A stretch of DNA of 64,000 bases. Source: Candidatus Doudnabacteria bacterium RIFCSPHIGHO2_02_FULL_42_25 (lineage in GTDB: Bacteria; Patescibacteriota; Doudnabacteria; UBA920; O2-02-FULL-48-8). The notes below the pieces were generated by a model. The model was given only the letters and a program-made list of their open reading frames with translations, had not been told where the DNA came from and ran no database searches. This document shows positions 2,514 through 63,588 of the stretch, one piece after another; the stretch's first letter is position 1; each line of letters begins with the position of its first letter. The position numbers and the translations under genes were made by a program. Where the stretch lies: positions 10 to 64,009 of the forward strand of contig MFEQ01000004.1 of assembly GCA_001777665.1 (NCBI GenBank), in the 5' to 3' direction.

Positions 2514-3620
2514 TCACTTCTTATTTTTTATGATGATTCTCATATAAATAAACCTGAATCGATTTCCTTCTTTAACTATAGGACTACCATTTAAATCATT
2601 AAAATTATCACCGTCTTCTTTGGTATAGATCTTTATCTTTAAATTATACGGATCATTTCTATGCGTTAATCCAATTATCTCAAACTGTTCGGGGCTATAT
2701 TTATTCAAAAAAGTGATCGGCACACCTATTGCGCCATAATAATCCGTAGGGATATCGGAAACTTTCGAAACCTCTATTGCATCGTAATTATCGTATTTTG
2801 GAAATTCTTCTGAGGTGTATTTTTTATAAAGATCAAGCTTTTCATGTCGTTTCTCCGTATCAAGGTTTGTGTACCAATTGACAGCTGGGACTTTTACATA
2901 TCCATCATTTGGATTATATCCTTTCCCTTTAACAAACTGCTTGTTGGCTTCAAGGTTGTTGTTATAAGGTGTCTTATATACCATTGACATATTAAAACCG
3001 TAACCAGACCACAATTTATTTTGTTTTATTAATCCGAAAACATCTTTATACGTAATAGCGTTCATGTTCCCTAAAATCAAAAACTTTTTATCGTGTTCAA
3101 CAAGCTGAGCTAGGTATTCACGAAAAAGAGAAAATGGTGGATTAGTGACGACGATGTCGGCTTCTTTGAGTAGTTCGATACATTCAGCGCTTCGGAAATC
3201 ACCAGAGCCTTTTAGCGGAGTGGCAACATTAGCATCGTTTTTAAGCAACCATTCTACATCAGATAAACCAACGGAACCGTCGGCGTCTGCATCTGGGACT
3301 TTATTTATTTCTATCTTTAATGGCTGTTTGCCTTTTGATCCAGCCACTTGGAGCAACGGCAACTGACCGCCAACAATTGGCGAACCGCTATAACTCGTGG
3401 TAATGAGCTTCTTGAGCTTTAATTCGTTGAATTTAGAAGCGAAATATTTAAAAAAATTGCTTTCAAATGGATCATCGCAATTACAATATACAACTTTGCC
3501 GCGAAATTGATCTTTGTAGTGCTTCAGCTCTTTTTCAATATCAACTAACTGAGTATAAAACTCATCTTTTTTGGCCTGGCTTGCCTTATGTAAATTTTTA
3601 TTTGATGATTTTTTTTCCAT
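2514..3620 (-). CDS. N6-adenine methyltransferase (gamma-class-like), probably DNA
   Basis: N-terminal DEFYTQ (FxTP-like motif X) and catalytic IVVTNPPFS (motif IV); starts 10 bp after secA stop. Confidence 0.55.
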   Translation of the reverse strand: MEKKSSNKNLHKASQAKKDEFYTQLVDIEKELKHYKDQFRGKVVYCNCDDPFESNFFKYFASKFNELKLKKLITTSYSGSPIVGGQLPLLQVAGSKGKQPLKIEINKVPDADADGSVGLSDVEWLLKNDANVATPLKGSGDFRSAECIELLKEADIVVTNPPFSLFREYLAQLVEHDKKFLILGNMNAITYKDVFGLIKQNKLWSGYGFNMSMVYKTPYNNNLEANKQFVKGKGYNPNDGYVKVPAVNWYTNLDTEKRHEKLDLYKKYTSEEFPKYDNYDAIEVSKVSDIPTDYYGAIGVPITFLNKYSPEQFEIIGLTHRNDPYNLKIKIYTKEDGDNFNDLNGSPIVKEGNRFRFIYMRIIIKNKK

Positions 3621-3629
3621 AAATGCAAA

Positions 3630-6248
3630 TCAAACACCACCTTGCTTCTTGACAAGATTATTTTTATGCTCTTCAGTATTCAATAGCCCGCATTTCTTCC
3701 ATTTTTTACCACTACCGCAGGGGCAGGGGTCGTTGCGGCCGATTTCTGATCCTTGATCATTGTTACGTGTTACGGGGCTTACAGGCTGAGGAGTGACGTC
3801 GACTCGGAAAATTGTGTACGCGACTTGTCGATTTATTTCATCGAGTAATCTGCCAAATATTTCAAACCCTTCGTTTTTGAATTCGTGTAGTGGATCGCGT
3901 TGGCCGTATCCTCGGAGTCTCACTGAATCACGTAAATGCTCCATGGTGTCCAGATGTTCTTGCCAGAGGACATCGATGGCTCTGAGATAAACCACTCGCT
4001 CTAACTGACGCATCACTGGTGCTCCTAGTTTTTGCTCTTTCTTCTCGTACTCTCGCATCGCGAGATTGACGAAGTGTTGAGTCAGAACTTCCTGATCCAG
4101 GGATTTATTTTCATCCACATCGTGTTGCAGTGGGACTATGGTTCCGATTTCATGAAAAATCTTGTGGGAATCAACTTGTTCTTGGGCTAAACCAAAGTTT
4201 ACTATGTTCGTAATTTCTTTTACTAACATATCTTTAATTTGAGCACTTAGATCGGTTTGGGGATCGAGAGATTGTTTACGCTTACCATAAATAACCGTGC
4301 GCTGTTTATTCATGACATCGTCATATTCCAACACATGTTTTCTCATGTCGAAGTTTAACCCTTCAATCTTTTTCTGCGCTGATTCGATGGATTTGGAAAT
4401 TAACGCAGCTTCAATTGGTTGATCTTCAGGAATACCCAAAGTCTCCATCATCTTCCCTACCCGATCTCCGCCGAACAATCTCATCAGATCATCTTCGAGG
4501 GACAAGAAAAATTGCGAAGAACCAGGATCGCCCTGTCGGCCAGAACGTCCTCGCAACTGATTGTCGATACGTCTGGATTCATGACGTTCAGTTCCGATAA
4601 CTGCAAGACCTCCTAATTCTTTCACACGAGCTTGTTCCTCCGGATCTGCCGGGTTTCCACCCAAAATAATGTCGACTCCTCGACCTGCAATGTTTGTAGC
4701 TAGGGTTACTGACCCCAAACGCCCTGCTTGAGCGATTATATGGGCTTCACGCTCGTTATTCTTCGCATTTAGGAGCTCATGAGGCACTCCGGCTTGCTTG
4801 AGCAATTGCGACAATAATTCGTTCTTTTCGATAGATATAGTACCAATCAGAATAGGTCGCCCAGTTGAGTGGATTTCCTTAATGGCGCGAACTAGGGCCG
4901 TGAATTTTCCTTTTACGTTTTTGTAAACTTGATCCGGCAAATCTTTTCTGATCATCGGTCGGTGTGTCGGGATCAATACTACTTCGAGGTTATAAATTTT
5001 ATGAAATTCTTCGGCTTCGGTTTCAGCAGTACCAGTCATACCGGCCAATTTTTTGTACAAACGGAAATAGTTCTGGAAAGTGATGGTAGCGAGAGTTTTA
5101 CTTTCTTGCTGAACTTTCACACCTTCTTTGGCTTCGATGGCTTGGTGCAAGCCTTCAGAATATCGACGGCCAAACATCAGACGCCCGGTAAATTCATCGA
5201 CTATAACTACTTCCCCTTCTCGAACGACGTAATTGATGTCTTTTTTAAATAAAGTTTTGGCACGGAGTGCGGCATCAGCTTGATGTCGAAGTTTAGGATC
5301 ATTATAAATCGCATCACCGTACTTTTTTTCTAATTTCACATTGCCTTTTTCAGAGAAAGCGACCTGCTTTTTCTTTTCATCTACAACGTAATCATCAGGG
5401 CTAAGTGAAGTAATGACTTTTGCAAACTCAGAATACATATCTGTCGAATCAGTATCAGGGGCGGAAATGATGAGCGGGGTTCTAGCTTCATCAATCAAAA
5501 TCGAGTCGACTTCGTCTACGATAGCATAGTGCAAATCTCGTTGTGACATTTGATTCGGATCCCAGACCATGTTGTCGCGCAAATAATCAAACCCATATTC
5601 GTTATTTGTGCCATAAGTGATATCAGAAGCATATGCTTGTCTTCGTGGCACTGGGCGCATATGTTTGACGTCCAGGACCAATCCTTGCACTCCGGCTTCA
5701 ATCTGTTTGATTTCTTCTTCTTCTGGTTTGAAAGTCGGGTCATAGATAAACGACTGCTCGTGTTGGATCGAAGCAACTGACATTCCCAAGTAGTGATAAA
5801 TCTGGCCCATCCAAGAAGCCTGCCATCTGGAGAGATAATCGTTAACTGTGACCAGATGCACTCCTCGGCCAGTTAGAGCGTTAAGGTATAGCGGAAGTGT
5901 AGCAACCAAAGTTTTTCCTTCTCCAGTTCTCATTTCAGCGATAGCGCCAGTGTGAAGCACCATGCCACCGATTAGCTGCACATCATAGTGGCGCTGACCA
6001 ATGGTTCGTTTTGATGCTTCTCTCACCGCTGCAAAAGCTTGAGGTAATAATTCTTCCAATTTGGCTTTTTGCTGATCTAAATCCAAACTCGCCAACTGTG
6101 CTTTCCATTTAACAGTTAGTGCTTTGAGATCGTCTTGTGATTTGGATTCAAATTCTTTTTCCAGGGAGTTGATTTCATCAACTTTTTTCTGGAGTCGTTT
6201 GACTACAGCCTGGTTCGAATCTGAAAATAAATTACTAAAAAATGCCAT
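3630..6248 (-). CDS. secA: Preprotein translocase ATPase SecA
   Basis: 872 aa; DEAD-like motor, C-terminal CPCGSGKKWKKC zinc-binding tail. Confidence 0.95.
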   Translation of the reverse strand: MAFFSNLFSDSNQAVVKRLQKKVDEINSLEKEFESKSQDDLKALTVKWKAQLASLDLDQQKAKLEELLPQAFAAVREASKRTIGQRHYDVQLIGGMVLHTGAIAEMRTGEGKTLVATLPLYLNALTGRGVHLVTVNDYLSRWQASWMGQIYHYLGMSVASIQHEQSFIYDPTFKPEEEEIKQIEAGVQGLVLDVKHMRPVPRRQAYASDITYGTNNEYGFDYLRDNMVWDPNQMSQRDLHYAIVDEVDSILIDEARTPLIISAPDTDSTDMYSEFAKVITSLSPDDYVVDEKKKQVAFSEKGNVKLEKKYGDAIYNDPKLRHQADAALRAKTLFKKDINYVVREGEVVIVDEFTGRLMFGRRYSEGLHQAIEAKEGVKVQQESKTLATITFQNYFRLYKKLAGMTGTAETEAEEFHKIYNLEVVLIPTHRPMIRKDLPDQVYKNVKGKFTALVRAIKEIHSTGRPILIGTISIEKNELLSQLLKQAGVPHELLNAKNNEREAHIIAQAGRLGSVTLATNIAGRGVDIILGGNPADPEEQARVKELGGLAVIGTERHESRRIDNQLRGRSGRQGDPGSSQFFLSLEDDLMRLFGGDRVGKMMETLGIPEDQPIEAALISKSIESAQKKIEGLNFDMRKHVLEYDDVMNKQRTVIYGKRKQSLDPQTDLSAQIKDMLVKEITNIVNFGLAQEQVDSHKIFHEIGTIVPLQHDVDENKSLDQEVLTQHFVNLAMREYEKKEQKLGAPVMRQLERVVYLRAIDVLWQEHLDTMEHLRDSVRLRGYGQRDPLHEFKNEGFEIFGRLLDEINRQVAYTIFRVDVTPQPVSPVTRNNDQGSEIGRNDPCPCGSGKKWKKCGLLNTEEHKNNLVKKQGGV

Positions 6249-9139: not shown

Positions 9140-9475
9140 TTAATTTTTCCTCTTAGCAGATCGTGCCCCTCGACGAGTCAACGTTTGCTTTTTATCTTTA
9201 AACTTTCCAATTTGATCTTTAATTTTCGGGATTACCAAATCAATCGCGGCATAAACGTCTTCTGCTCGGGTTTCTCCACGCATAACTTTCCCGCCGACGA
9301 TTAACATCACTTCTGCACGAAAAACTTGCCCGGATTTGTGATGTTTGTCACGCTCGAGCTCAACTTTCGCATCAGTGGCAACTATAAATTTTCCCAAGTT
9401 GCCAATTTTCTCATTCACATATTGTTTGACTGATGGCGTCAAACTCATATTCGTTCCTTTTATAGATATATTCAT
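9140..9475 (-). CDS. hpf: Ribosome hibernation promoting factor / sigma-54 modulation protein
   Basis: 111 aa; MNISIKGTNMSLTPSVKQYVNEKI... RaiA/HPF fold. Confidence 0.8.
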   Translation of the reverse strand: MNISIKGTNMSLTPSVKQYVNEKIGNLGKFIVATDAKVELERDKHHKSGQVFRAEVMLIVGGKVMRGETRAEDVYAAIDLVIPKIKDQIGKFKDKKQTLTRRGARSAKRKN

Positions 9476-9576
9476 CCCGTTAGAAATAATGATTAGTTAA
9501 TAAATAAAATTATTTAAGATTGTCCCGATAACTATAATCTACACGTAACTTTAAACTCTGTAAAATTTCTAACGGG
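9476..9576. repeat. MITE-like palindromic element, family CCCGTTAGAAAT...ATTTCTAACGGG (copy 1, abuts hpf ATG)
   Basis: 12-bp terminal inverted repeats ~100 bp apart; internal GATTAGTTAAT. Confidence 0.55.
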
Positions 9577-9612
9577 ATTCATGCACTAATATTATCTTAA
9601 GCAAGGGACTTT

Positions 9613-9691
9613 GTAAAATTAACTCGCGCAGGACGACGGTCCGAGCGCGTAGGCCAAAAATTCAGCAGAATTTTATGGCCGGTAATTTTAC
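9613..9691. repeat. 79-nt multi-hairpin structured element, copy 1 (candidate cis-regulatory/ncRNA element)
   Basis: Closing stem GTAAAATTA/TAATTTTAC, hairpins CTCG..GGAC-GACG-GTCC..CGAG and GGCC-AAAAATTC-AGCA-GAATTTTAT-GGCC; ~90% identical to 43693-43771. Confidence 0.6.
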
Positions 9692-9707
9692 AATGATCCC
9701 GAGCGCG

Positions 9708-11078
9708 CTACTTTACCATCTTTCTTGCGAGGTTGTCTATATCTCCTGCGCCCATCATTAATACTAAATCAAAATGTTTTATTTTTTCTTTGATCAATTT
9801 TTCTGTTTGAGACAAGTCTTTGGCATAAGTAGCCTTAGCTCCCTTTTTTGTTAACTCTTCTACCAACTGCTCCGAACTTATATCTTCACCGTGCTCTCTT
9901 CCAGTTACATCAAATATTTCTGGCAAGATTATTTCGTCAGCAGTGACTAATGCCTCGACAAAATCCCCAAATAGCGCTTTCGTTCGATTCCTGTGGTGTG
10001 GCTGAAAAACTACCAAAATCTTTTTATTTGGAAAGAATTCTCGAGCTGCTTGGATCGTTAGCTCCACTCCTGCTGGATGATGAGCGTAATCTGAAATGAC
10101 CGGTTTCAAATAATGATTACCGACTTCTTCAAACCTTCGCCATAGCCCATTAAATTCCGCTAGAGTTTGTTTAATCACGTCAAATTCTACCCCGAGCTTG
10201 ATCGCAGCTAGAATCGCGCCTAATGCATTGCTCATATTAAATATCCCTGGGACTTTGAGGACTATTTGACCAATCATTTCATCATCGTAGTGAAGATCAG
10301 CTATTTGTTCTCTATTGCCTATTTTGCAATTTACAGCCTGCAAATCAGCATAATGGTGGATACCAAATGTAAATTTGTGACAGGCCACGTGTTTGCATAC
10401 ATCCACTGTATTATGATCATCAGCGTTAAAAATCAAAATCCCTTCCGGTCCGATTGATTTAGCATATTCCAAAAATGCGGATTTGATATCTGACAAATCA
10501 TTGTAATAATCCAAATGATCTTCAGCGACATTAGTCACGATAATCATTTTGGGTTTGTTAAACAACATCTTGCGATGATATTCGTCAGATTCAACTACTA
10601 AATATTCACCTTTCCCATACCTAGCATTCGCCTGAAATTTATCCGATTCATTTTTGTGGGAAAGAGTAGAGCCTATTAACACTGTGGGGTCTAGATTCGC
10701 TCTTTCGAGGATTAGGCCCAATAAAGCCGTGGTTGTAGATTTGCCATTGGTTCCGGTCACCCCAATCCCATATTTCTCAACCATTAAATCGCCTAGAGCT
10801 TGAGCTTGGGAAATTTTCGGAGAGGTTATAAAATCCAAATCATCTTTCGGGATATCTTGAGAATAGATAACCAGATCTGGTTCAGGTGTAATTTTTGCGG
10901 GATTTGGACCTATGTCCACATCCATCCCCAAATCTTCCAGGGATTTGGTAATCACTGATTCTTTGATGTCTGAACCGGAAACATTTTTACCCATAGCAAA
11001 AAGAATTCTAGCTAGAGCTGAAACTCCAATTCCTCCAATTCCCAGACAATAAATATTTTTAGCTTGTTTGATATCCAT
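9708..11078 (-). CDS. murC: UDP-N-acetylmuramate--L-alanine ligase
   Basis: 456 aa; N-terminal GIGGIGVSALA Rossmann, Mur ligase central GTNGKSTT. Confidence 0.85.
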   Translation of the reverse strand: MDIKQAKNIYCLGIGGIGVSALARILFAMGKNVSGSDIKESVITKSLEDLGMDVDIGPNPAKITPEPDLVIYSQDIPKDDLDFITSPKISQAQALGDLMVEKYGIGVTGTNGKSTTTALLGLILERANLDPTVLIGSTLSHKNESDKFQANARYGKGEYLVVESDEYHRKMLFNKPKMIIVTNVAEDHLDYYNDLSDIKSAFLEYAKSIGPEGILIFNADDHNTVDVCKHVACHKFTFGIHHYADLQAVNCKIGNREQIADLHYDDEMIGQIVLKVPGIFNMSNALGAILAAIKLGVEFDVIKQTLAEFNGLWRRFEEVGNHYLKPVISDYAHHPAGVELTIQAAREFFPNKKILVVFQPHHRNRTKALFGDFVEALVTADEIILPEIFDVTGREHGEDISSEQLVEELTKKGAKATYAKDLSQTEKLIKEKIKHFDLVLMMGAGDIDNLARKMVK

Positions 11079-11178
11079 CCCGTTAGAAATTTTGATTAGT
11101 TAATTTTTATTATAATTTATATTTAAATGCGCCAAGGTCTGTAAATAGAAAAAGCGACTAAAAAGCATTTCTAACGGG
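11079..11178. repeat. MITE-like palindromic element, same family (copy 2, abuts murC ATG; distal arm lies in patatin 3' coding end)
   Basis: CCCGTTAGAAATTTTGATTAGTTAAT ... ATTTCTAACGGG. Confidence 0.55.
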
Positions 11179-12153
11179 ATCCATATCCGCTGCAATTTGT
11201 TTTTGTTGATATTGTTTGATTAGTTTTTTTATTTCTGGAACAGCGGCCTCCGCAGCCCTCCGACCTTCTTGATATATTTTATCCAAATTCGAAAATTCAG
11301 TTTTACCATAATGCTTAACATGAGGTTCGATCATCAGATCACAGGCGACATGGGATTCGTCCCATTGTTCCTCAATCCGGAATGAATGTTCGACAGCTTT
11401 GGTCATGACAGATATAACTCCGGGTATTTTAATATCTCTTTGTTCCAGGACGTCAGATTGGCTGTCTAATCGAAATAGCAGTCTGGGAGAGAGCTTAGGA
11501 ATAATTTTTTCCCGAATAAACTGTAGCCCCATGACATTGGTCAAAAATCTGTAGCCTCGCCAGATCGGCATCTTTTTTTCGTATATAAATTTAGTAGCAG
11601 CGATATTGATGCCAATTACGATATCGGCTCCCATTTCTTTCACGGGAAGAGTTGGCACGATATTTACCAATCCACCGTCTACCAAAACATGCTTTTCCCA
11701 AACAACTGGTTCAAACAATCCTGGCACAGCCACTGAAGCTTTAAATGCTGTATTGATGCTTCCAGATTTAATAGTAACCAGTTCTCCTGTATTGATATCT
11801 GTTGCAGAAAAGCCAACTTTTGGTCCTTCGATATCTTCAAAATTCATGTTATGTGTAACACTATTCAGCAACTCCTCCATAGCCTCATTGTGCAAATGAA
11901 ATAACCCGCCTTTTGCATTTTTCAAAGACCAAAATCTTAGTATACTCGGAAAACTCAACTCATAAAAAACTTTTTTCATGGCTTCCATGGTTCCAATAGC
12001 AAAACTAGCGGCAATCAAAGCCCCAGACGAACATCCAACTAAATAGTCTATCGTAATTTTATGTTCGCGAAACACCTCCAAAGCACCAATATGCGCTATA
12101 GCTCGGCCAGAGGCTCCAGATAAAGCGATCCCAATTTTCGGTCGGTTAGTCAT
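11158..12153 (-). CDS. Patatin-like phospholipase
   Basis: GxSxG lipase motif GCSSGA; glycine-rich oxyanion GIALSGASGRAIAHIG. Confidence 0.75.
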   Translation of the reverse strand: MTNRPKIGIALSGASGRAIAHIGALEVFREHKITIDYLVGCSSGALIAASFAIGTMEAMKKVFYELSFPSILRFWSLKNAKGGLFHLHNEAMEELLNSVTHNMNFEDIEGPKVGFSATDINTGELVTIKSGSINTAFKASVAVPGLFEPVVWEKHVLVDGGLVNIVPTLPVKEMGADIVIGINIAATKFIYEKKMPIWRGYRFLTNVMGLQFIREKIIPKLSPRLLFRLDSQSDVLEQRDIKIPGVISVMTKAVEHSFRIEEQWDESHVACDLMIEPHVKHYGKTEFSNLDKIYQEGRRAAEAAVPEIKKLIKQYQQKQIAADMDPVRNAF

Positions 12154-13235: not shown

Positions 13236-14332
13236 TTGTACACCTCTACAGTTTCTTCAGCAGCTTTTTTCCAGCTGAAATGTTTTGACCTTGCCAATGC
13301 TAAATTTGCTAATTCTTCCAAACGAATTGGATTATTCAATAAATTTTTCAAAACATCTATCATGTTAGTTAAATTATTCGGATCAAAATATTCCGCTCCC
13401 TGACCTGCGACCTCATGCAAAACCGGAATATCCGAACAAGCGATCGGGGTCCCACAAACACCCGCCTCGAGAATCGGCAAACCAAATCCTTCCATGTGTG
13501 AGGGTAAAACAAAAAGTGTGGCAGCATTGTATACTGCTTTCAAATCGTCATCAGATATTCGGCCCAGTGCTTTGATACGATCCTTGTTTTTTATATTATA
13601 CACTTCTTCCTTTATTTCTGGATAAAAAGGATCTGGCTCACCCACTAATACCAGCTCCAGGTCCAGTCCTTGAGTAACTAATTTATCAAAAGCTCTCGCA
13701 AGCATTGGTAGGTTTTTATATCGGCGCCAGGTTCCCACATACAATATATAGTGTTTAGTAATTCCAAATCTATTGGATATTTGCTGGAAAGCCAATTCTT
13801 TGTCCATCATTTGGTAAGTTTGATTAAACCCTTCGTAAACTACTTTTATTTTACCAGGATTCAAATTCTGATAATAATCCAAAAGCGCTCTTTTTGTAGC
13901 TTCTGAGACAGCGATGATTTTATCCGCACTTCGAACTGCGTTCCAAAACACGAGATGATAAGCCAAGCGATGAAAAAATCGCGACTTCTTTTTCCCAGGA
14001 ATCAACGTGTGAGTTAAATCATGAATCGTGACTATAAATCTTCCTCGATAAAATATCGGGGCATTGAAATGCGGGAAATGGACTATATCTAATTTTTCTT
14101 TTTTCAAAACAGATGGCAGATGTAATTGCTCTGCTACAGAATAATGTTTAATTCCGGTTATGACTATTTTTTGATTGTATTTTTTAAATACCTCGGTCTG
14201 TGATTCTTCGCGGAAAAACAATACAAACTCATTCAATTTATCCTGGTTGAGAATTTCATGAAAAAGCTCGGTAATGTACCGATCTATTCCCGTTCCCCCA
14301 CCAATCATTCGTAAATCAATTCCTATGCGCAT
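13232..14332 (-). CDS. Glycosyltransferase family 1 (GT4)
   Basis: EGFGLPILEAGVCGTPIACSDIPVLHEV GT-B C-terminal motif. Confidence 0.75.
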   Translation of the reverse strand: MRIGIDLRMIGGGTGIDRYITELFHEILNQDKLNEFVLFFREESQTEVFKKYNQKIVITGIKHYSVAEQLHLPSVLKKEKLDIVHFPHFNAPIFYRGRFIVTIHDLTHTLIPGKKKSRFFHRLAYHLVFWNAVRSADKIIAVSEATKRALLDYYQNLNPGKIKVVYEGFNQTYQMMDKELAFQQISNRFGITKHYILYVGTWRRYKNLPMLARAFDKLVTQGLDLELVLVGEPDPFYPEIKEEVYNIKNKDRIKALGRISDDDLKAVYNAATLFVLPSHMEGFGLPILEAGVCGTPIACSDIPVLHEVAGQGAEYFDPNNLTNMIDVLKNLLNNPIRLEELANLALARSKHFSWKKAAEETVEVYK

Positions 14333-15401
14333 ATTTTTCCTCTACGAATTGCTTAATCTTTCTTTGGAATTCGTTTTTATCAAACTGTAGGGCATGGTTT
14401 CTGATTGTTGTGCGATCAAACTTAGTGGCATCAAAATTCCTAACTTTTTCGATAATTGCTTCTTTTGTCTGTTCAGCAAAAAATTCACCCGTGACTCCCT
14501 CTTTTATCGCTTCTAGTGCTCCACCCTTACCGTAGGCGATTACTGGCGTACCGCAAGACTGAGCTTCCAAAAAAGTAATTCCAGCGTCTTCATCTGCTGC
14601 AAAAACATAAGCCTGTGCCTCACTGTAGTGTCTTCGCAATTGTTCATTCGACAGTACTCCCAAGAATTCTATGTTTGATTTGGCCTGGGATTTCAGCGTT
14701 TCCATTTCAGTACCAGATCCTGCAATTTTTAGAGATAACCCCAATTCATTGAAAGCCTGAACTATAACATCTACTTTCTTGTAAGGTTCAAGTCTACTAG
14801 CTGTAAAAAAATAATCTTTTTTTTCACCCATTGGTTGAAACGCTTGTGTGTCTACAGGTGGCGGAATCACAACTGAATCACGATTATAATATTTTTTTAT
14901 ACGCTCCTGGACATTCTTTGAATTCGTAATTATATAATTGGGTCTCTGAGCTGCTTTATAATCCCATTTTCTTAAAAGCGGAACAAACATTTTACCAATT
15001 GCTTTGAAAATTCTAGGATATTTCTGAACGTCTAAATATTTCGATTCTGTCCAAAGAAATCTAGTTGGTGTGTGCATATAACAAATATGGAGCTTGTCGG
15101 TCTTAATTCCTTTTGCAAACGAAGAGGAATCAGAAAGAACTAAATCATACTCTGCAAATTTAAAACTCTCGATTGCAGACGGCATCCAAAGCAAGAGCAA
15201 CCTATGATGGGTTTGGGCCAATGGAAAACTATTTAACCAGCTAATTTTCTTTTGATATTTTTCAAACTCATTACGTGTTTTTTCTTTATTGTAGAGAATC
15301 AAATGGACTTTAGCATCAGGCCAAATTTCAAAAAAATTCTGCAACACTCTTTCAGCACCTCCGATTTGATTCAAAAATTCATGTACTAACGCTACCTTCA
15401 T
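14316..15401 (-). CDS. Glycosyltransferase family 1 (GT4)
   Basis: C-terminal GTPVIAYGKGGALEAIKEGVTGEFF GT-B motif. Confidence 0.7.
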   Translation of the reverse strand: MKVALVHEFLNQIGGAERVLQNFFEIWPDAKVHLILYNKEKTRNEFEKYQKKISWLNSFPLAQTHHRLLLLWMPSAIESFKFAEYDLVLSDSSSFAKGIKTDKLHICYMHTPTRFLWTESKYLDVQKYPRIFKAIGKMFVPLLRKWDYKAAQRPNYIITNSKNVQERIKKYYNRDSVVIPPPVDTQAFQPMGEKKDYFFTASRLEPYKKVDVIVQAFNELGLSLKIAGSGTEMETLKSQAKSNIEFLGVLSNEQLRRHYSEAQAYVFAADEDAGITFLEAQSCGTPVIAYGKGGALEAIKEGVTGEFFAEQTKEAIIEKVRNFDATKFDRTTIRNHALQFDKNEFQRKIKQFVEEKYAHRN

Positions 15402-15799
15402 TGGTGTAACTCCGCAGTTGTTCCCCTCCCTGGAAGGGAGGGGTTAGGGGAGGGTCGAAGAGCTAACTTAAGCGTTAGGTCTGCAAACACTCCATCTAGG
15501 TTATTGAGAATTTGGGAGTTATCATAACGAATGATTTGATAACCTTTGGATATTAGATATTTCGTTCTGGTTTTATCGTAATCTATTCCTTGTGTTGTAA
15601 AATGCGAATCCCCATCTATTTCGATAATTAGATTTAAGGCTGCACAGTAAAAATCTACTATATAGGGACCTATGTCATGCTGCCGACGAAACTTAAGGTT
15701 ATTAAATTGCTTTGCAGAAACCATAGCCCAAAATACCTTCTCTGCTGGAGTAGAGTTGTGTCTTAATTCTCTTCTTTGCTTTGTTCGAGCTAAAACCAT
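15398..15799 (-). CDS. DUF559 endonuclease-domain protein (Vsr-like fold)
   Basis: GPYIVDFYCAALNLIIEIDGDSH... DUF559 core; C-terminal tail encoded by a CCCCTCCC/GGGAGGGG hairpin. Confidence 0.6.
   Translation of the reverse strand: MVLARTKQRRELRHNSTPAEKVFWAMVSAKQFNNLKFRRQHDIGPYIVDFYCAALNLIIEIDGDSHFTTQGIDYDKTRTKYLISKGYQIIRYDNSQILNNLDGVFADLTLKLALRPSPNPSLPGRGTTAELHQ
15423..15443. repeat. GC-rich hairpin CCCCTCCC-TGGA-AGGGAGGGG (family flanking DUF559 genes)
   Basis: Related hairpins at 15826-15846, 25566-25589, 40372-40392, 40804-40824, 40887-40907. Confidence 0.5.
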
Positions 15800-17704: not shown

Positions 17705-17846
17705 CCCAGTATATCAACTTCGATAAATGGCTAATTTGCTTTTGCCTATTATCAAAGCTTGTTTTATAAAAAAATTATTAATCTATAAACCAAATTTTGA
17801 CGTTAAGCCATTTGAAGGGCAAAAGCATCGAAGTTGTATTACTGGG
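17705..17846. repeat. Long imperfect palindrome, family CCCAGTATATCAACTTCGATA...TATCGAAGTTGTATTACTGGG (copy 1)
   Basis: ~21-30-bp TIRs plus inner IRs (AAATGGCT/AGCCATTT; GCTTTTGCC/GGCAAAAGC). Confidence 0.55.
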
Positions 17847-17911: not shown

Positions 17912-18288
17912 GCTTTCTAAGTAAGTGGGTAATCGCCCTGACGGAAACGTCCGGGAGGAAAGTCCGAACACGTGTGAATTGGATGAAGTCTCATGAGTTC
18001 ATGCAGTTCAGCAGGTAGTGGGTAATTCCCACCGGGAGTAATCCTCGAGATGCGAACAGAAACGCTTCGATCAGAAATGGGAGAAGTATCCAGTAATGGA
18101 TAATGCTCGTCGTAAGGCGAGAGTGAAACGGCTAAATTCATACTTGTCAGTGCAATACCGAATAGGTCCTTCACAGGACGGGTAGGTAGCTAGAGTTCTA
18201 CAGCAATGTAGATCCCAGAGAGATGATTGCCTCTCCCGACGTAAGTCGGGATCAGACAGAATTCGGCTTATAGCTTGCTTAGAAAGCA
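17912..18288 (+). ncRNA. rnpB: RNase P RNA (bacterial type A-like)
   Basis: GGGAGGAAAGTCCGAACAC (P4 5' strand) and ACAGAATTCGGCTTATAG (P4 3' strand); P1 pairing GCTTTCTAAGTAAG / CTTGCTTAGAAAGC; promoter immediately upstream. Confidence 0.8.
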
Positions 18289-24827: not shown

Positions 24828-24909
24828 GTGTTTTTGCGTTAATGGTTATTCGGCGGAGCTGCGCGTATCGGTTAACGTCTGACGATACGCGTGGCGCTGC
24901 CCGATACCG

Positions 24910-25023
24910 TCAGCCTTGTCTTTGCTTATGTTTAGGAATTTCGCAAATAATATAAACTCGACCGCGGCGGCGGACAATTTTGCATTTCTTACAAATCGGT
25001 TTTACACTTGCTCTAACCTTCAT
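24910..25023 (-). CDS. rpmJ: 50S ribosomal protein L36
   Basis: Manual translation of minus strand: [37 protein letters not shown]; below the 60-aa ORF-track cutoff. Confidence 0.8.
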
Positions 25024-25134
25024 AGTTTATCGTTATTCGTCTGCGCTGCGAGTATCGTCTTACGGCGGCGTTGTGCGTTGAGATCCGGTTTACGTTTGAC
25101 GTTTACCGATACGCGCTGCGCTGCCGTTTAACTT

Positions 25135-25317
25135 TTAACGCAACCTTCTAATTACGCGACCTCGGGTCAAATCATAAGGGGTTACTTCAATGATAACTTT
25201 ATCCCCTGGTAAAATTCTAATTTTATTTACTCGCAATTTACCGGCTATATGAGCCAAAATAATCTGCCCCGACTCAATTTGCACACGAAAAACAGCGTTG
25301 GGCAGAGTTTCTACCAC
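25135..25317 (-). CDS. infA: Translation initiation factor IF-1
   Basis: [29 protein letters not shown]...; GTG start in track; IF-1-like residues continue in-frame upstream. Confidence 0.8.
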
Positions 25318-25407
25318 TTTACCCTCAAGTTCGATGGTATTTTTTTGTGGGCCTTGCGTCCCTAAATCTTGAGTGCCTGTAGAAATATGAGTGGGTTCTT
25401 ACTTAAA

Positions 25408-25508
25408 CCCCGTTAGAGATAACGAATACTAGTAAAATGGGGTCTAAAATTTAAAAATATCTTAGATAATAACAAATTACTTAACCGTTAATTAATCTCT
25501 AAACGGGG
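25408..25508. repeat. MITE-like palindromic element, variant termini CCCCGTTAGAGAT...ATCTCTAAACGGGG (copy 3, upstream of infA)
   Basis: Seen directly. Confidence 0.5.
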
Positions 25509-25928
25509 TAATTTGCTCAAAAATGATAACAAATTCTGACAGATGTGTCAACTCGAATTAGAATACCCCTCTCCTTGAGAGGAGAGGGGCCGGGGGTGAG
25601 GTAGATTTATAGCTAACATTAGCCATTTTCTATATCTAAGGCCAGCCGACACTTGCAAAAATATAGTCAGAATTCGAAGCGAGCTGTAGTGTTGCGACGG
25701 TAGAGGTATAGGTCTTCTGAGCAACATGAAGAGAGTAAGCGAGCTAAGAATTCTGGTATATTTTTGCCGTGTCGCCAATTTTTGGGCGGATCGCTAAAAC
25801 GCGATCCGCCCTTTTGTTTGGTACAAAAGGTGGAGAATAAATAATAACTTGAGTATTAATTATAGAAATGGATCCCGGATCGCCCTTCACCCTGGTATAT
25901 TCCAGGGAACGTAGCGTCCGGGATGGAC

Positions 25929-27488
25929 TTATTGCTTAAGCACTGTTTCGATATTTATTTTCCCGTTGAATCTTGGGGCTTTGTGGACGAACCACTCGGG
26001 CCAGAACTTTACTTCTACATCATCGACTTCTGGCTTGCTTAGCAAAATTTCTTTTATTTCTAATTCATTTTTTCCAGTCAGAAGCTTTGAGAGATTATCA
26101 GTATCCATTTTGTACGCAGCGACGGTTTCGAAATGCACTGACAAAACACCTTTGGTCTGGGCTGGATCTATTGTCTTATAGACGGCTTCATACTTCGACT
26201 CTGCAGACTCAAGGAGGTATTTATCATCTGATAAGACTTCATTGATTTTTGCCAAAACAACTTCGCTGACATCATCTTCACGGAATGCCAGTCCACTGAC
26301 CCGTGCGATTATCGTCATATCGAAACTAGTAACTTCAGCACCAATATTTTTATTCGCCGTTTTTGCCAATACTTCTTTTTTGGAGCCCGAATCCAGTAAC
26401 TTCATTTCAACAGAGTTGGTTTGAGATATTTCAGCAGCAGCCACAGATACAATTTCAACTAGCATGGCATCTGTCGCTTTATCGATGTCTTCCTGGGTCA
26501 GGATTTTTGTAACTGCGCCCGTTGTTCCTCCAGTCAATGCCTGGGGATTAGTAGCATATACATCAGCATTACCCAGGGCCGCATTGGAAATTTGAAATCG
26601 CGTATTCGCGGCGAGATTCGAATCCGCTCCCCCATCTTGGGCAATAATTTGGATTCCGGTTGTAGAAGCGCCGTTACCCCGAATTCCACCGACATCACTC
26701 ACGAAATTAAACTTTTTGCCATTCGCAATCAAAGTCGTAGTAGCTGCTTTAAGTGTTAAAGTATTCGGAGTGTTATTAACTATTGTTACTGTTCCTGTGG
26801 CTTTTGTACCTGACGACTTAGTCCCTGTTGTATCAAATGTTTTAGTTAATGAAACTTCTTTCGAAACTACTACACCAGGAATAGAAAGTGCCGACGCATT
26901 CACTGCTTTATTTTCTTTATCAACACTGACTTCGAAATCTCTCGATATAGCTTCTGATCTCGCCGTAACTTTCACATTGGCTTTTGGTAACAGCACTAGT
27001 GCCCCAAACACTGCCACTATCACCACCACTAAAATTAAAATAAAAAATTTGGAAAACTTGGAAGACTTCTTGGCAATTTCAAATTCGAGCCTGGAACCGC
27101 TGGGTTCATACGACTGATGTACGACATGATGTTGTGGTTCTTCATGGACTTTTTTCGACATCGTGATATCGCCAAATTGGGTCCCAGGTTTTGGACTAGC
27201 ATTAGTCCGACGAGTGGGCCTCACGGCTTTTACTGAAGTCACCTCACCGGGTAACATCCCAACTTTCTTTACGAGCTGCATCCCCGCTTCGTCAGAAGTT
27301 TGAATTTTTACTTCTTTACCATAAATCTCACCAGTCTTCTTTAGTAGCCTCAAATGGTTCTGATTCCGTAAGATAGCCGACCCAGATTCTAACTCAAAAA
27401 CCACCCCATCATCCTTTAGGGATTTGATCTGCTTTACTGCTTCAACCAGATCGTTTTTCTTATTTAATTTAAGGATTTTGAGGGACAT
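25929..27488 (-). CDS. Hypothetical membrane-anchored protein with Thr-rich extracellular region
   Basis: 519 aa; cytoplasmic N-domain, single TM (FFILILVVVIVAVFGALVLL), long T/S/A-rich region. Confidence 0.5.
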   Translation of the reverse strand: MSLKILKLNKKNDLVEAVKQIKSLKDDGVVFELESGSAILRNQNHLRLLKKTGEIYGKEVKIQTSDEAGMQLVKKVGMLPGEVTSVKAVRPTRRTNASPKPGTQFGDITMSKKVHEEPQHHVVHQSYEPSGSRLEFEIAKKSSKFSKFFILILVVVIVAVFGALVLLPKANVKVTARSEAISRDFEVSVDKENKAVNASALSIPGVVVSKEVSLTKTFDTTGTKSSGTKATGTVTIVNNTPNTLTLKAATTTLIANGKKFNFVSDVGGIRGNGASTTGIQIIAQDGGADSNLAANTRFQISNAALGNADVYATNPQALTGGTTGAVTKILTQEDIDKATDAMLVEIVSVAAAEISQTNSVEMKLLDSGSKKEVLAKTANKNIGAEVTSFDMTIIARVSGLAFREDDVSEVVLAKINEVLSDDKYLLESAESKYEAVYKTIDPAQTKGVLSVHFETVAAYKMDTDNLSKLLTGKNELEIKEILLSKPEVDDVEVKFWPEWFVHKAPRFNGKINIETVLKQ

Positions 27489-39206: not shown

Positions 39207-40355
39207 TTATTTCTTTTTCTTGAAATACTTTTTCCCTTTTAGTTTGTCTGGCAATAAATCCTCTTTGGTATACAATTCATAGCCCTGATGATAACCCAAT
39301 TCTTTCATCAATTTAGTCGGGGCGTTGCGGATCATCATTGGTATGGGTAAATTCCCTGTATCTCTGACGTCGTCTACTACTTCAAAATATGCGTCGTAGG
39401 ATTCGCGACTTTTAGGAGCCAAAGCTAAATATGCCACACCGTGGGATAGATTGATTGCACACTCCGGATATCCGATAGTCTCACAGGCTCGAAATACGTC
39501 ATTGGCTAGCTGTAATGCCACCGGGTCTGCGAGGCCTATATCTTCTGACGCAAACACAACCATGCGACGGGCGATGAATTTCGAATCCTCGCCTGCTTCG
39601 ACCATTCGAGCTAAATAATACAGCGCTGCATCGACTTGCGAGGCGCGCATAGATTTAATGAATGCGGAAATAGTATTGTAATGCTCATCTGCTTTTTTAT
39701 CGTATCTTAAATGTTTACTCTGTAAAGTATTCTTTAAATTTTCAACAGTAATATCCTGATAAAATTTGGCCGTGTTCTCGAGCATAGTGATAGCTTGTCT
39801 CGCATCGCCATTGGCCATGCGAATCAACCAATCTTTGGCTTCTTTGTCTATCTGGAAACCCGTACTCTCAATTATTTGCTCCATTTCTTTTTCTGGGAGT
39901 TCATTGAGGACAAATACTCGACAACGAGAAAGTAGAGCTGGGATGACTTCGAAACTAGGGTTTTCAGTGGTGGCACCAATCAAAGTTAAAACACCGTTCT
40001 CAACATAAGGTAAAAGAAAATCTTGCTGGGCTTTATTGAATCTATGAATTTCATCTAGAAATAATATTTTTGGTTTATTGCCCGTCAGCAAATCGGCTTT
40101 CTTTTCAACTATGTTTCGAATGTCTTCCTTTCCTGCAGAAACTGCGGAAAGTTCGTAATAATCGGCTTCCAATGCTTGAGCATAAATTCGAGCCAGAGTA
40201 GTTTTGCCTACTCCAGGTGGCCCCCACAGAATAAAGCTAAACAAATGCTTGCCTTCGATGGCAATTCGAAGAGGCTTGTCAGGACCAACTAGGTGTTCCT
40301 GACCGACAAAGTCTTTCAAACTCTTAGGGCGAATTTTGGATGCGAGGGGTTCCAT
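39207..40355 (-). CDS. rarA: Replication-associated recombination protein A (AAA+ ATPase)
   Basis: Walker [12 protein letters not shown]; MgsA/RarA-type C-terminal domain. Confidence 0.85.
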
Positions 40356-40426
40356 TCAAGAGAATCCTGACCCTCTCCTTCCAGGAGAGGGTGGCGCGAA
40401 GCGCCGGGTGAGGTGGTTTAAGGTGG

Positions 40427-43655: not shown

Positions 43656-43692
43656 GTGTAAAAAATCCATTAACCTGGCAGCGAGGCACTTG

Positions 43693-43771
43693 GTAAAATT
43701 AGCTCTCGCAGGACGACGGTCCGAGAGCGCAGGCCAAAAATTCAGCAGAATTTTATGGCCGGTAATTTTAC
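43693..43771. repeat. 79-nt multi-hairpin structured element, copy 2
   Basis: Same architecture; stem differs by paired changes (CTCTCG/CGAGAG vs CTCGCG/CGCGAG-like in copy 1). Confidence 0.6.
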
Positions 43772-43788
43772 CAACGTGCCGAGCGTAA

Positions 43789-44871: not shown

Positions 44872-44875
44872 CCCG

Positions 44876-45802
44876 TTAGTCCCTTAATCCATGGCCCGTT
44901 AGTTTCAAAAAGACATCTTCCAAAGTCGGCTGATGAAGTTGTAAGTCTACTAATTTTACTCCTGCTTCTCTGCTCAATTTAAATAAATCGGATAACGTCG
45001 CTTCAGAATTATCTGTAGTTAATCGATAAGTATGATCTTCAGACTGAACAGAAGTAACCCCTGTTATTGCTTTTAGTTGTTCTATATCCAAAGGCTTATC
45101 CACCAAAAAATGAATAGACGTTGACAAACCAGGCAATTTCAAAAGATTTTGTGTAGTATCGAGAGCTATAATGTGAGCATGGTCCATGACCGCAATTCGA
45201 TCACATAAAATCTCTGCTTCATCCATATAGTGGGTTGTCAGGACGACGGTTTTTCCTTTTTTGTTAATCTCTGTAATCAATTCCCAAAGATTACGTCTGG
45301 CTTGAGGATCTAGGCCCGTGGTTGGCTCATCCAAAAATAAAACTTTCGGATCATTGACTAGAGCAGCAGCTATAGAAAATCTCTGCTTCTGTCCACCAGA
45401 TAATTCTTTGTGCTGAGATTTTGCTTTTTCCTCGAGTTGGACTTCACGCAGCAATTCCATGGCATCAACTTTGCGGTTATAAAGAGCGCCGAAAGTTTCC
45501 AATAATTCTAATAAATTTAATCCTTCGAAAAACGAAGACGACTGCAACTGCACTCCAATCAACGATTTTACAGTTCGAGTATCTTTGCTGACATCGTGCC
45601 CATCCAAAAAGGCCTGGCCAGATGTTATACCCTTCAGCCCTTCAATCATTTCTAGCGTAGTAGTCTTCCCTGCTCCATTTGGCCCGAGAATACCAAAAAC
45701 CTCACCTTCATTAACCTCGAAGCTGATATTATCAACGGCAGTTAATCCGCCAGCTGGCGGACCGTATTTTTTCTTTAAATTTTTGACTTCAATAATTGCC
45801 AC
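44876..45802 (-). CDS. ABC transporter ATP-binding protein
   Basis: Walker A GPNGAGKTT, signature LSGGQKQR, Walker B LFLDEPTTGLD. Confidence 0.85.
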   Translation of the reverse strand: MAIIEVKNLKKKYGPPAGGLTAVDNISFEVNEGEVFGILGPNGAGKTTTLEMIEGLKGITSGQAFLDGHDVSKDTRTVKSLIGVQLQSSSFFEGLNLLELLETFGALYNRKVDAMELLREVQLEEKAKSQHKELSGGQKQRFSIAAALVNDPKVLFLDEPTTGLDPQARRNLWELITEINKKGKTVVLTTHYMDEAEILCDRIAVMDHAHIIALDTTQNLLKLPGLSTSIHFLVDKPLDIEQLKAITGVTSVQSEDHTYRLTTDNSEATLSDLFKLSREAGVKLVDLQLHQPTLEDVFLKLTGHGLRD

Positions 45803-50388: not shown

Positions 50389-51402
50389 TTATTTTGTTTC
50401 GAATTCGCGTTGTTTTTCCACCAATAACTTCTGATGCCAGGCCCAGGCAGTTTTTATGATTGTTTCGACATCAGAATAGATAGGGTTAAATCCCAATTCA
50501 GTTTGGATTTTGGTGGGATCTGCGACTAAAACTGCTGGATCCCCTGGCCGTCTGGGTGAATACTCAATCGGGATCATTCGCTTTGTCACCTCAACACAGG
50601 TGTTCACGATTTCATTTACTGATCGGCCCTTACCAGTACCGACATTGTAAGCAAATACGCCTTGGTCAGAATCTAATTTATGCAAAGCGAGATTATGTGC
50701 TGTCGCTAAATCTTCCACATGAATATAATCTCTGACGCATGTTCCATCAAAAGTGGGATAGTCGTTGCCAAAAATCTTTAAGACTTCTTGCTGCTTGGCT
50801 GCAACCTGTAAAATTTTCGGGATCAAATGTGATTCGACTGGATGACTCTCGCCGATTCTTGCATCCGTGCTGCCACCGCAGGCATTAAAATATCGGAGGC
50901 TGATCGAGGACAGCCCAAACGCTTCGTGGTACCACTTCAATATTTTTTCAAACACCAGTTTCGTTTCACCATATGGGTTGACGGGTTTTTTGGGATGCTC
51001 TTCGTCAATCGGAACATAATGTGGCTCACCGTAAATGGCTGCACTGGATGAGTAAACCAATTTCGTGACTTTGTGGCTGACCATGGCATCGAGTAAATTT
51101 CGGCCGTTATTGACGTTGTTATCAAAATATCGATTCGGGAACAAAACTGATTCTTCAACTATGATTGAGTTGGCAAAATGGATTACAGAATCGATTTCAT
51201 GATCATCAAAAATTTTATCAAGGAGTTTTTTATCAGATAAATCCCCGACTATCAACTGACAATTAATTGCGTTGGAATGCCCGGCCGAGAGATTATCAAG
51301 GACGATAACCTCTTTCCCGATGGATTGCAATAATTTCACGGTGTGGGAACCGATGTAGCCCGCACCACCAGTAACTAAAATTTTCTGCTTTGGGGAATCC
51401 AT
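50389..51402 (-). CDS. galE: UDP-glucose 4-epimerase / NAD-dependent epimerase
   Basis: VTGGAGYIGSH Rossmann, YxxxK active-site region; 337 aa. Confidence 0.75.
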   Translation of the reverse strand: MDSPKQKILVTGGAGYIGSHTVKLLQSIGKEVIVLDNLSAGHSNAINCQLIVGDLSDKKLLDKIFDDHEIDSVIHFANSIIVEESVLFPNRYFDNNVNNGRNLLDAMVSHKVTKLVYSSSAAIYGEPHYVPIDEEHPKKPVNPYGETKLVFEKILKWYHEAFGLSSISLRYFNACGGSTDARIGESHPVESHLIPKILQVAAKQQEVLKIFGNDYPTFDGTCVRDYIHVEDLATAHNLALHKLDSDQGVFAYNVGTGKGRSVNEIVNTCVEVTKRMIPIEYSPRRPGDPAVLVADPTKIQTELGFNPIYSDVETIIKTAWAWHQKLLVEKQREFETK

Positions 51403-58218: not shown

Positions 58219-58241
58219 ACCATCAGGCCTATTCTAACGGG

Positions 58242-63443: not shown

Positions 63444-63588
63444 CCCAGTATATCAACTTCGATAATGGTTTTTGAGTTCGCTTTTGCGAAAGAAAAACGC
63501 ATTAATTTAATATTTTCTAAAATCATAGCAATTATATTTTAATTATCAAAAACCATTAAAGCAAAAGTATCGAAGTTGTATTACTGGG
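63444..63588. repeat. Long imperfect palindrome, same family (copy 2; fills the HIT-rfbB intergenic region, abutting rfbB ATG)
   Basis: Same TIRs; inner IR ATGGTTTTT/AAAAACCAT. Confidence 0.55.

Follow-up and report, generated by a model that had tools for sequence, protein, structure and literature searches.

Why do palindromes of about 100 bp end exactly at the start codons of two core genes, murC and hpf, in a 64-kb stretch of Candidatus Doudnabacteria DNA (Candidate Phyla Radiation (CPR)/Patescibacteria; a metagenome-assembled genome from the Rifle aquifer, GCA_001777545.1, contig MFEE01000004)? An earlier reading of this stretch, hereafter the window, was made from the letters alone (the sequence-only reading) and left a choice between a hairpin that sequesters the translation initiation region and a mobile element that donates a start context. 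The second answer is borne out by empty sites in relatives, flanking direct repeats, duplicated targets and a terminal base that forms part of the start codon. We consider it very probable that the palindromes are insertions of a non-autonomous miniature transposon with inverted repeats (a MITE) on the start codons of hpf and murC, and that each start was rebuilt from the terminal base of the element and the duplicated target.

Nearly all genes in the window are carried on the minus strand, where the patatin-like gene, murC and hpf follow one another in this order, and for this reason the elements are read on that strand. The sequence-only reading had listed three elements of about 100 bp with 12-bp inverted repeats. 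Two of them have exact 12-nt arms, CCCGTTAGAAAT/ATTTCTAACGGG (9476-9487/9565-9576 and 11079-11090/11167-11178), or 14-nt arms if the flanking AT is included, but the third pair (25409-25420/25495-25507) is degenerate, CCCGTTAGAGAT versus ATCTCTAAACGGG, with one extra A. As that reading had it, ATTTCTAACGGG stands on the coding strand directly 5' of the ATG of hpf (9475) and of murC (11078), and the octamer CTAACGGG directly 5' of the ATG of an ABC permease (44871) and of a CAP-domain gene (58242), the only one of these four arm-abutting genes that is not on the minus strand. The octamer is also well above its background frequency, with eight occurrences in the window versus 0.84 expected (0 of 100 shuffles reach eight). 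Altogether the window holds three element copies and three solo arms. The copies, their flanks and the genes next to them are as follows.

9475-9577, minus strand: copy 1 of the putative MITE, 103 bp, with 13-nt terminal inverted repeats T-CCCGTTAGAAAT ... ATTTCTAACGGG-A
9471-9474, unstranded: gene-proximal target duplication of copy 1, TTCA on the plus strand and TGAA on the coding strand
9578-9581, unstranded: distal target duplication of copy 1, part of the relic ATGAAT on the coding strand (9582-9577)
9536-9564, minus strand: promoter-like site in copy 1, TTTACA, 17 nt, TAGATT (consensus match only)
9140-9475, minus strand: hpf, ribosome hibernation factor, 111 amino acids (aa), downstream of copy 1
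11078-11179, minus strand: copy 2 of the putative MITE, 102 bp, bounded by 13-nt repeats; the murC start codon takes its A from base 11078
11074-11077, unstranded: gene-proximal target duplication of copy 2, TCCA on the plus strand and TGGA on the coding strand
11180-11183, unstranded: distal target duplication of copy 2, relic ATGGAT within the patatin reading frame
9708-11078, minus strand: murC, downstream of copy 2
11158-12153, minus strand: patatin-like gene, whose last seven codons and stop codon come from copy 2
25408-25508, unstranded: copy 3 of the putative MITE, decayed, C-CCCGTTAGAGAT ... ATCTCTAAACGGG-G, with an extra A in the right arm

The sequence-only reading had proposed a comparison of orthologous intergenic regions for presence/absence differences, and these are found in three comparison contigs (L010, L011 and L012) whose MurC proteins are 83%, 73% and 70% identical to that of the window; MurC used as a single-protein query of genome contigs returned distant homologues only. 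Gene order in the three contigs is as in the window and the spacers are absent. The patatin-like gene and murC overlap by 20 nt in all three, the murC stop codon lies 4 nt from the hpf start in L010 and L011, and a Band_7 gene stands between murC and hpf in L012. The site of copy 2 is empty in L010, L011 and L012, and that of copy 1 in L010 and L011. Because orthologous sites are empty in three relatives, the elements are insertions. Both are unchanged in four samples of the same species.

Alignments place the insertion boundaries cleanly. At the copy 2 junction, L010 reads ...GAATATGGATATCAAAC where the window reads ...GGATATGGAT-(100 bp)-ATGGATATCAAAC, and at the copy 1 junction TAATTCTATGAACATATCT of L010 corresponds to ATGAAT-(101 bp)-ATGAATATATCT in the window. 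On either side of each element there is thus a direct repeat with the start codon in it, ATGGAT at murC and ATGAAT at hpf. The relatives have this sequence once: L010 has a single ATGGAT at murC, and the hpf site of the relatives is a single ATGAAC or ATGAAT.

The wider search for inverted arm pairs suggested in the sequence-only reading found them on at least 119 metagenome contigs. The scan pattern, CCCGTTAGARAT-N60-90-ATYTCTAACGGG, fixes 22 bases, for which less than one chance match is expected; all counts for the family given here are among the matches listed. We compared 122 copies together with their flanks. When the six flanking bases on the left were set against those on the right, positions 2-5 agreed in 80-86% of copies and positions 1 and 6 in 42-43%. 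Next to the arms stand Y (left) and R (right), which complement each other in 93% of the copies, and flank positions 2 and 5 are mostly T and A, giving the target consensus TNNA. This pattern of agreement and complementarity points to a 13-nt terminal inverted repeat (Y-CCCGTTAGAAAT) and a 4-bp target duplication, which is exact in 81 of the 122 copies. The non-consensus flanks TGCG, CGCA, CTCA, CGGA and TGAG match directly, and the four bases therefore form a direct duplication and do not belong to the inverted repeat; the same evidence led us to reject the alternative structure, a 14-nt repeat with a 2-bp duplication. In the window the duplications are TGAA for copy 1, TGGA for copy 2 and TAAA/TAAT for copy 3, which adjoins no start codon.

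The elements measure 86-114 nt between the outer arm ends, contain no open reading frame (ORF) of their own and match no Rfam family at gathering or E-value thresholds. Terminal inverted repeats, a fixed-length target duplication, small size without coding capacity, multiple copies within and between genomes, and presence/absence polymorphism at orthologous sites make the family a MITE by every testable criterion except an autonomous partner.

How such an insertion could leave a start codon intact follows from its ends. A transposase acting in trans would recognise the 13-nt terminal inverted repeats Y-CCCGTTAGAAAT, and the ~100-bp element would insert through a staggered 4-bp cut at TNNA, duplicating the target. 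In both full window copies this target would be the TGNA that follows the A of the start codon (A/TGGA/T in murC, A/TGAA/T in hpf), and the filled site would read A-TGNA-Y(element)R-TGNA-N. At the proximal junction R-TG, the sequence ...CTAACGGG-A and the duplicated TGNA would give ATG, a G-ended repeat would give GTG, and the upstream copy of ATGNA would persist as a relic. Thus the arm abuts the start codon because the terminal repeat base and the duplicated TG rebuild ATG or GTG. At hpf, for example, the copy 1 repeat ends on base 9475, which doubles as the A of the start codon, and the proximal TGAA supplies the TG, followed by AA. Both the initial base of the start codon and all of its upstream context thus come from the element, which is the sense in which it donates a start context, as the sequence-only reading put it. 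Among 46 start-codon copies (copies that adjoin an ATG or GTG heading a frame of 70 codons or more), 27 join an ATG to a T...A repeat, 17 join a GTG to a C...G repeat and two have a C...A repeat. The A before the upstream target copy is retained (as ATG or a similar relic) in 37 of the 46.

The insertions would have split two tight junctions, the 20-nt patatin/murC overlap and the 4-nt murC-hpf spacer, and murC and hpf would each have gained a new 5' flank, built from the repeat and lacking a Shine-Dalgarno (SD) sequence. The distal arm of the murC element had been taken for non-coding DNA in the sequence-only reading, but it lies in the 3' end of the patatin-like gene, whose product ends in ...DMDPVRNAF. 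Copy 2 provides P-V-R-N-A-F and the stop codon TAG (the distal 18 nt plus the stop) after a duplicated D, and the gene would in this way have gained a seven-codon tail and a stop codon from the element. Excising copy 2 and one duplication in silico yields an in-frame fusion of patatin and murC, so the patatin tail has been altered since the insertion. For hpf, the N-terminus MNISIKGTN is common to relatives, which supports the 111-aa start as the true one and thus a protein that begins at the MITE-rebuilt ATG.

Annotation is affected as well. Public gene calls give hpf 102 aa, begun at an internal ATG, instead of 111, and an ORF in L062 runs through the element. The rebuilt starts explain such gene-caller errors, in which some calls read through the element, and elements of this family likely mislead start-site prediction at other loci too.

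The solo arms of the window extend the same picture to the other two genes with an abutting octamer. They comprise the following features.

58231-58241, plus strand: solo right arm ATTCTAACGGG, 11 of 12 bases, abutting the ATG of the CAP-domain gene
44872-44902, minus strand: two partial right arms in tandem, CTAACGGG cc ATGGAT taaggga CTAACGGG ATG

In the relatives L132 and L133 the leader of the CAP-domain gene keeps a promoter-like TTGcCA...TAAAAT, is then 20-35 nt longer and lacks CTAACGGG; we read the arm at this gene as a putative remnant of a copy whose distal part was lost. In the tandem arms the TAA of the proximal partial arm is the stop codon of the ABC ATPase, 4 nt 5' of the permease ATG. 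The CTAACGGG-ATG motifs at the ABC permease and CAP-domain genes are remnants of further element copies, and tandem or nested arm fragments of a similar kind occur in L021, L041, L045, L046, L091, L103 and L116.

Neighbouring proteins identify several hosts of the family: Doudnabacteria (L047), Zambryskibacteria (L108), Azambacteria (L097) and Thermodesulfobacteriota (L095 and L129). No arm pairs were found in viral contigs. A GC-rich 93-nt subfamily mostly duplicates TAAA and has one member with a named host, L095 (Thermodesulfobacteriota). Its insertion adds 93 + 2 + 4 = 99 nt and keeps the frame (variants add 117 and 120). Indeed, five of the seven copies inside reconstructed ORFs add a multiple of three nucleotides (99 or 120) and the frame stays open, which argues that these copies are translated and not spliced out. 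In L070 (772-1398), for example, NuoI carries a 33-residue insertion of the 93-nt subfamily after residue 6, near its N-terminus. Further loci of the subfamily are found in L022, L029, L085, L113 and L124.

We also identified arm pairs in the anticodon region of tRNA genes, where they enclose a complete tRNA-Pro: in the CPR contigs L093/L097 (Azambacteria), L027 and L126. The interrupted tRNA genes lie at 7496-7686 in L097 (the same locus as in L093), at 520-860 in L027 and at 3400-3960 and 4860-5201 in L126. Several tRNA halves are joined through arms in L126, with three nesting levels, the outermost of which is bounded by another GC-rich inverted repeat, GCCCGCC/GGCGGGC. The tRNA-gene sites lack a target duplication, and we read them as disrupted or rearranged tRNA genes.

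The copies are not spread evenly over possible targets. As a null we used the loci with the elements removed, which contain 14,694 intergenic TNNA sites and 273 start-codon TGNA sites. Start-codon copies make up 46 of 124, versus 1.8% expected under uniform TNNA use (p about 6e-47), and 25 of the 32 copies in the TGAA/TTCA class lie on start codons versus 7.7% expected (p about 3e-22); both p-values are generous, since the copies are phylogenetically non-independent and the 'intergenic' class includes unannotated small genes, and a several-fold correction would still leave a large excess. In another 19 copies an upstream ORF has its stop codon within the duplication (TAAA, 11 copies) or within the arm (CC CGT TAG, 8 copies). 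Purifying selection alone does not predict the start-codon excess, because intergenic insertions should harm no more. The excess goes beyond tolerance, so either target choice favours gene starts or selection favours such insertions. In the reconstructed targets no further conserved positions were seen past the start codon.

These numbers allow a bolder proposal, which we regard as tentative and rather doubtful: that the family is mechanistically aimed at translation starts. A terminal R and a TG-led 4-bp duplication would then be an adaptation by which it can land on A/TGNA and spare the gene, and the copies in CPR bacteria would act as mobile 5'-untranslated-region (UTR)/promoter modules that uncouple operons and rewire core genes such as murC and hpf. 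The ground for it is the excess of at least 20-fold on start codons over intergenic sites with the same tetranucleotides, which exceeds tolerance.

Besides the non-independence of the copies and the impure intergenic class, several observations weigh against the MITE account and its extension. The interiors of the copies are highly diverse, which is unusual for a young MITE family, and copies 1 and 2 of the window share only about 28 nt beside the proximal arm plus TTTACAG. Forty-one of the 122 copies lack an exact duplication. A non-duplicated flank pair, (A)CTTGC/element/GTGAA, recurs at L030 (7475), L032 (2322-2422), L126, L097 and L041. Neither the window nor about 1 Mb of loci yielded an autonomous partner that shares the ends of the family, and the -10-like hexamers inside start-codon copies show no strand bias (42 sense, 54 antisense).

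Loci that are unrelated share the left flank CTTG(C), for which the 4-bp duplication model does not account. The shared interior consists of TTAACTAATCA(N2-3) beside the proximal arm and TTTACAG toward the distal side; copies resembling copy 1 are those of L066 and of L047, a contig from another Doudnabacteria genome. An internal xCGGG near the distal arm appears 28 times in start-codon copies versus eight in the opposite sense. This suggests that orientation relative to the gene is non-random, with a contrast that the relatedness within subfamilies inflates.

The hunt for a transposase came back empty from long-range arm pairs (L028, L050 and L070), recurrent protein clusters, ORFs beside solo arms, and Pfam searches of ten window ORFs. 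Inverted repeats and a fixed 4-bp duplication are typical of DDE transposases. Because no transposase was found, its family and mechanism are inferred from the footprint only. A literature search with the arm sequence gave only chance matches in unrelated papers, and nothing relevant came up for MITEs of Patescibacteria or for start-codon MITEs. The family is large, is present in several bacterial phyla and is apparently undescribed.

The element may bear an outward promoter: the promoter-like site of copy 1 lies downstream of the distal arm and is directed at hpf, and a donated internal promoter is suggested by this consensus match, in copy 1 only. The lack of strand bias among -10-like hexamers weakens the idea. 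The sequence-only reading had contrasted the arm-abutting genes with other window genes that have a GGAGG SD sequence, but a 4-mer SD core at -20 to -5 is present in merely 14 of 59 window genes and a 5-mer in 6 of 59. Lack of an SD sequence is the rule in the window and does not mark the four arm-abutting genes. An SD-like role of CTAACGGG was rejected because of its zero spacing to the ATG and the scarcity of SD sequences in the window.

As for the hairpin of the sequence-only reading, the pairing it described between the region 5' of the AUG and a sequence about 90 nt upstream is indeed predicted. Coding-strand folds across the elements give a 14-bp stem, AUCCCGUUAGAAAU/AUUUCUAACGGGAU, as the minimum-energy structure at both loci (-27.9 and -31.1 kcal/mol; z = -2.2 and -2.9), with the last two pairs using the A and U of the AUG. 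The stem would cover start-site positions -12 to +2, and it is physically possible that it damps translation; it would need a read-through transcript, since it forms only if transcription starts upstream of the distal arm. Since the patatin frame contains the distal arm of the murC element, the stem would be opened by ribosomes that complete patatin, and this might plausibly restore part of the translational coupling lost by the insertion, as a side effect of the repeats. One could take the stem ending on the AUG and the ribosome-accessible arm as signs of a non-mobile cis-regulatory hairpin of the host, with arms that evolved to pair in the mRNA and sequester the starts of selected genes. We think this improbable: terminal inverted repeats pair automatically, relatives, whose genes overlap or abut at the orthologous sites, lack the elements there, the elements bear target duplications, and the same arms occur at stop codons, in ORFs and in tRNA genes of unrelated phyla. 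The hairpin is possible, as an effect secondary to the mobile element. The empty sites, the duplications and the arms at stops, in ORFs and in tRNA genes likewise speak against pairs of operators, two inverted sites about 90 bp apart through which a DNA-binding regulator would loop the DNA. The exact conservation of 12-14 nt in both arms and a third partial site (xCGGG) near the distal arm of many copies would suit such a regulator, but the spread of the family across phyla and inside ORFs does not fit one regulon, and we hold this explanation to be very unlikely.

The tRNA genes raise a different alternative, an intron-like element removed at the RNA level, in which the arm helix would bring the duplicated 4-nt sites together for cutting and rejoining, as in archaeal bulge-helix-bulge introns and split tRNAs. 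It would account for arm pairs that interrupt the anticodon region in L093/L097, L027 and L126 and enclose a complete tRNA-Pro, and taking out the element and one duplication would restore the ancestral sequence everywhere. Splicing, however, imposes no length constraint, whereas five of seven in-ORF copies add 99 or 120 nt and stay open; genes with G-ended repeats start with GTG and have the ATG relic upstream; and the tRNA cases lack the duplication. In addition, the flanks and arms of L097 form a continuous 25-bp helix with one bulged base (-92.8 kcal/mol, z = -7.2), and the outer tRNA of L126 is degenerate, as expected of a disrupted gene. We judge removal at the RNA level unlikely, a little more so than the host hairpin. 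A bulge-helix-bulge intron proper, with two 3-nt bulges and a 4-bp helix between them, was rejected in view of the continuous helix in L097 and a 6x5 internal loop in the predicted structure of L126. Least credible, to the point of being nearly negligible, are attC recombination sites of the integron type. GTTAGAA within CCCGTTAGAAAT resembles the core GTTRRRY and the elements are imperfect palindromes of about 100 bp, but with respect to the short palindrome core and inverse core stand in the reverse of the attC order, murC and hpf, which lie between, are syntenic housekeeping genes, a 4-bp duplication is present and no integrase was seen in the window. An attC site as defined (inverse core RYYYAAC then core GTTRRRY within 57-141 bp, with cassette ORFs and an integrase) is contradicted by both order and synteny. 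Insertion of a MITE remains the reading that we prefer.

If the elements are MITEs, a single family has repeatedly pulled overlapping core genes apart in a CPR genome and given them a different translation start context. CPR (Patescibacteria) genomes are regarded as streamlined, with little mobile DNA. The transposon would enter a gene where it is most sensitive and yet leave it active, because its last base and the duplicated TG rebuild ATG or GTG, a solution that is undescribed as far as we found. It would explain some changes of start codon from ATG to GTG and some short upstream decoy ORFs. Furthermore, the family would be a marker of recent gene flow between CPR bacteria and Thermodesulfobacteriota of the same sediments.

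The murC-hpf spacer also holds a second, unrelated insert of about 105-131 nt. It belongs to a second repeat family, a highly structured element of about 105 nt directly 3' of stop codons (murC TAG and ABC permease TAA), with copies at 9600-9707 and 43680-43785 on the minus strand that are 89% identical. Its RNA fold has an energy of -48 kcal/mol (z = -5.0), and the copies differ by compensatory changes in two stems (GGGAU/GUCCC versus GGCAC/GUGCC, and UUGU..ACAA versus UUGG..CCAA). The element has no Rfam match and is absent at the murC-hpf junction of the relatives.

Other repeats are scattered over the window. Short tandem oligonucleotide repeats stand right 5' of the starts at 6248, 6688, 51402, 21530, 22313, 23269 and 24369 on the minus strand: TTCGTA x4 (secA and 50389-51402), TACGAA x3, ACGTAAC-like x3-4, TAATCTT x3 and TTTCGGG/TTCAGG. 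They may be SD-independent leader motifs. GC-rich intergenic hairpins, CCCCTCTCC...GGAGAGGGG, occur in the regions upstream of 14316-15460 and 39207-40400 and at 25560-25600. A repeat of about 145 bp with inverted ends CCCAGTATATCAACTTCGATA is present at 17705-17846 and 63444-63588, with one copy adjoining the RNase P RNA gene (17917-18286). Copy 3, the decayed MITE, lies in 1.1 kb without long ORFs (24830-25930), which also contains a 51-nt GC-rich inverted repeat (24834-24884/25093-25143); Rfam matches in this stretch are weak only.

Among known systems, a close parallel is with the Correia elements of Neisseria (CREE/NEMIS), non-coding MITEs of about 100-150 bp with terminal inverted repeats that lie beside gene starts, can provide promoters and, if co-transcribed, form hairpins. 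The window family is likewise a small non-coding MITE with terminal inverted repeats beside gene starts. However, Correia elements have 26-bp repeats and a TA duplication, whereas the window family has 13-nt repeats and a 4-bp TNNA duplication, rebuilds the start codon, lives in CPR bacteria and Thermodesulfobacteriota and has no sequence similarity to them; on the repeat and the duplication, a Correia element was rejected. Insertion sequence (IS) families with 4-bp duplications (such as the IS5 group, IS701, IS1182 and IS1380) are possible autonomous parents; the repeat sequence was matched to no family. They share short terminal inverted repeats, the 4-bp duplication and a loosely palindromic target, but no transposase gene was found between ends of the window family.

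Other palindromes resemble the family in what the host makes of them. Rickettsia palindromic elements (RPEs) are tolerated as in-frame additions to genes, as is the 93-nt subfamily with its 33 codons, yet RPEs are Rickettsia-specific and show neither a clear target duplication nor a start-codon preference. The enterobacterial ERIC and REP-BIME sequences are also transcribed intergenic imperfect palindromes that affect mRNA structure, but they lack TNNA duplications and do not abut start codons. Group I introns interrupt the anticodon loops of Patescibacteria tRNA genes as self-splicing ribozymes (PMC13011429), and these insertions in CPR tRNA genes recall the arm-bounded ones. Those introns match group I intron models, whereas the arm-bounded elements are about 100 nt long, have inverted repeats and match nothing in Rfam. 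What sets the family apart is its strong association with start (and stop) codons, the way it rebuilds ATG or GTG from its terminal base, and its occurrence in CPR bacteria as well as in Thermodesulfobacteriota.

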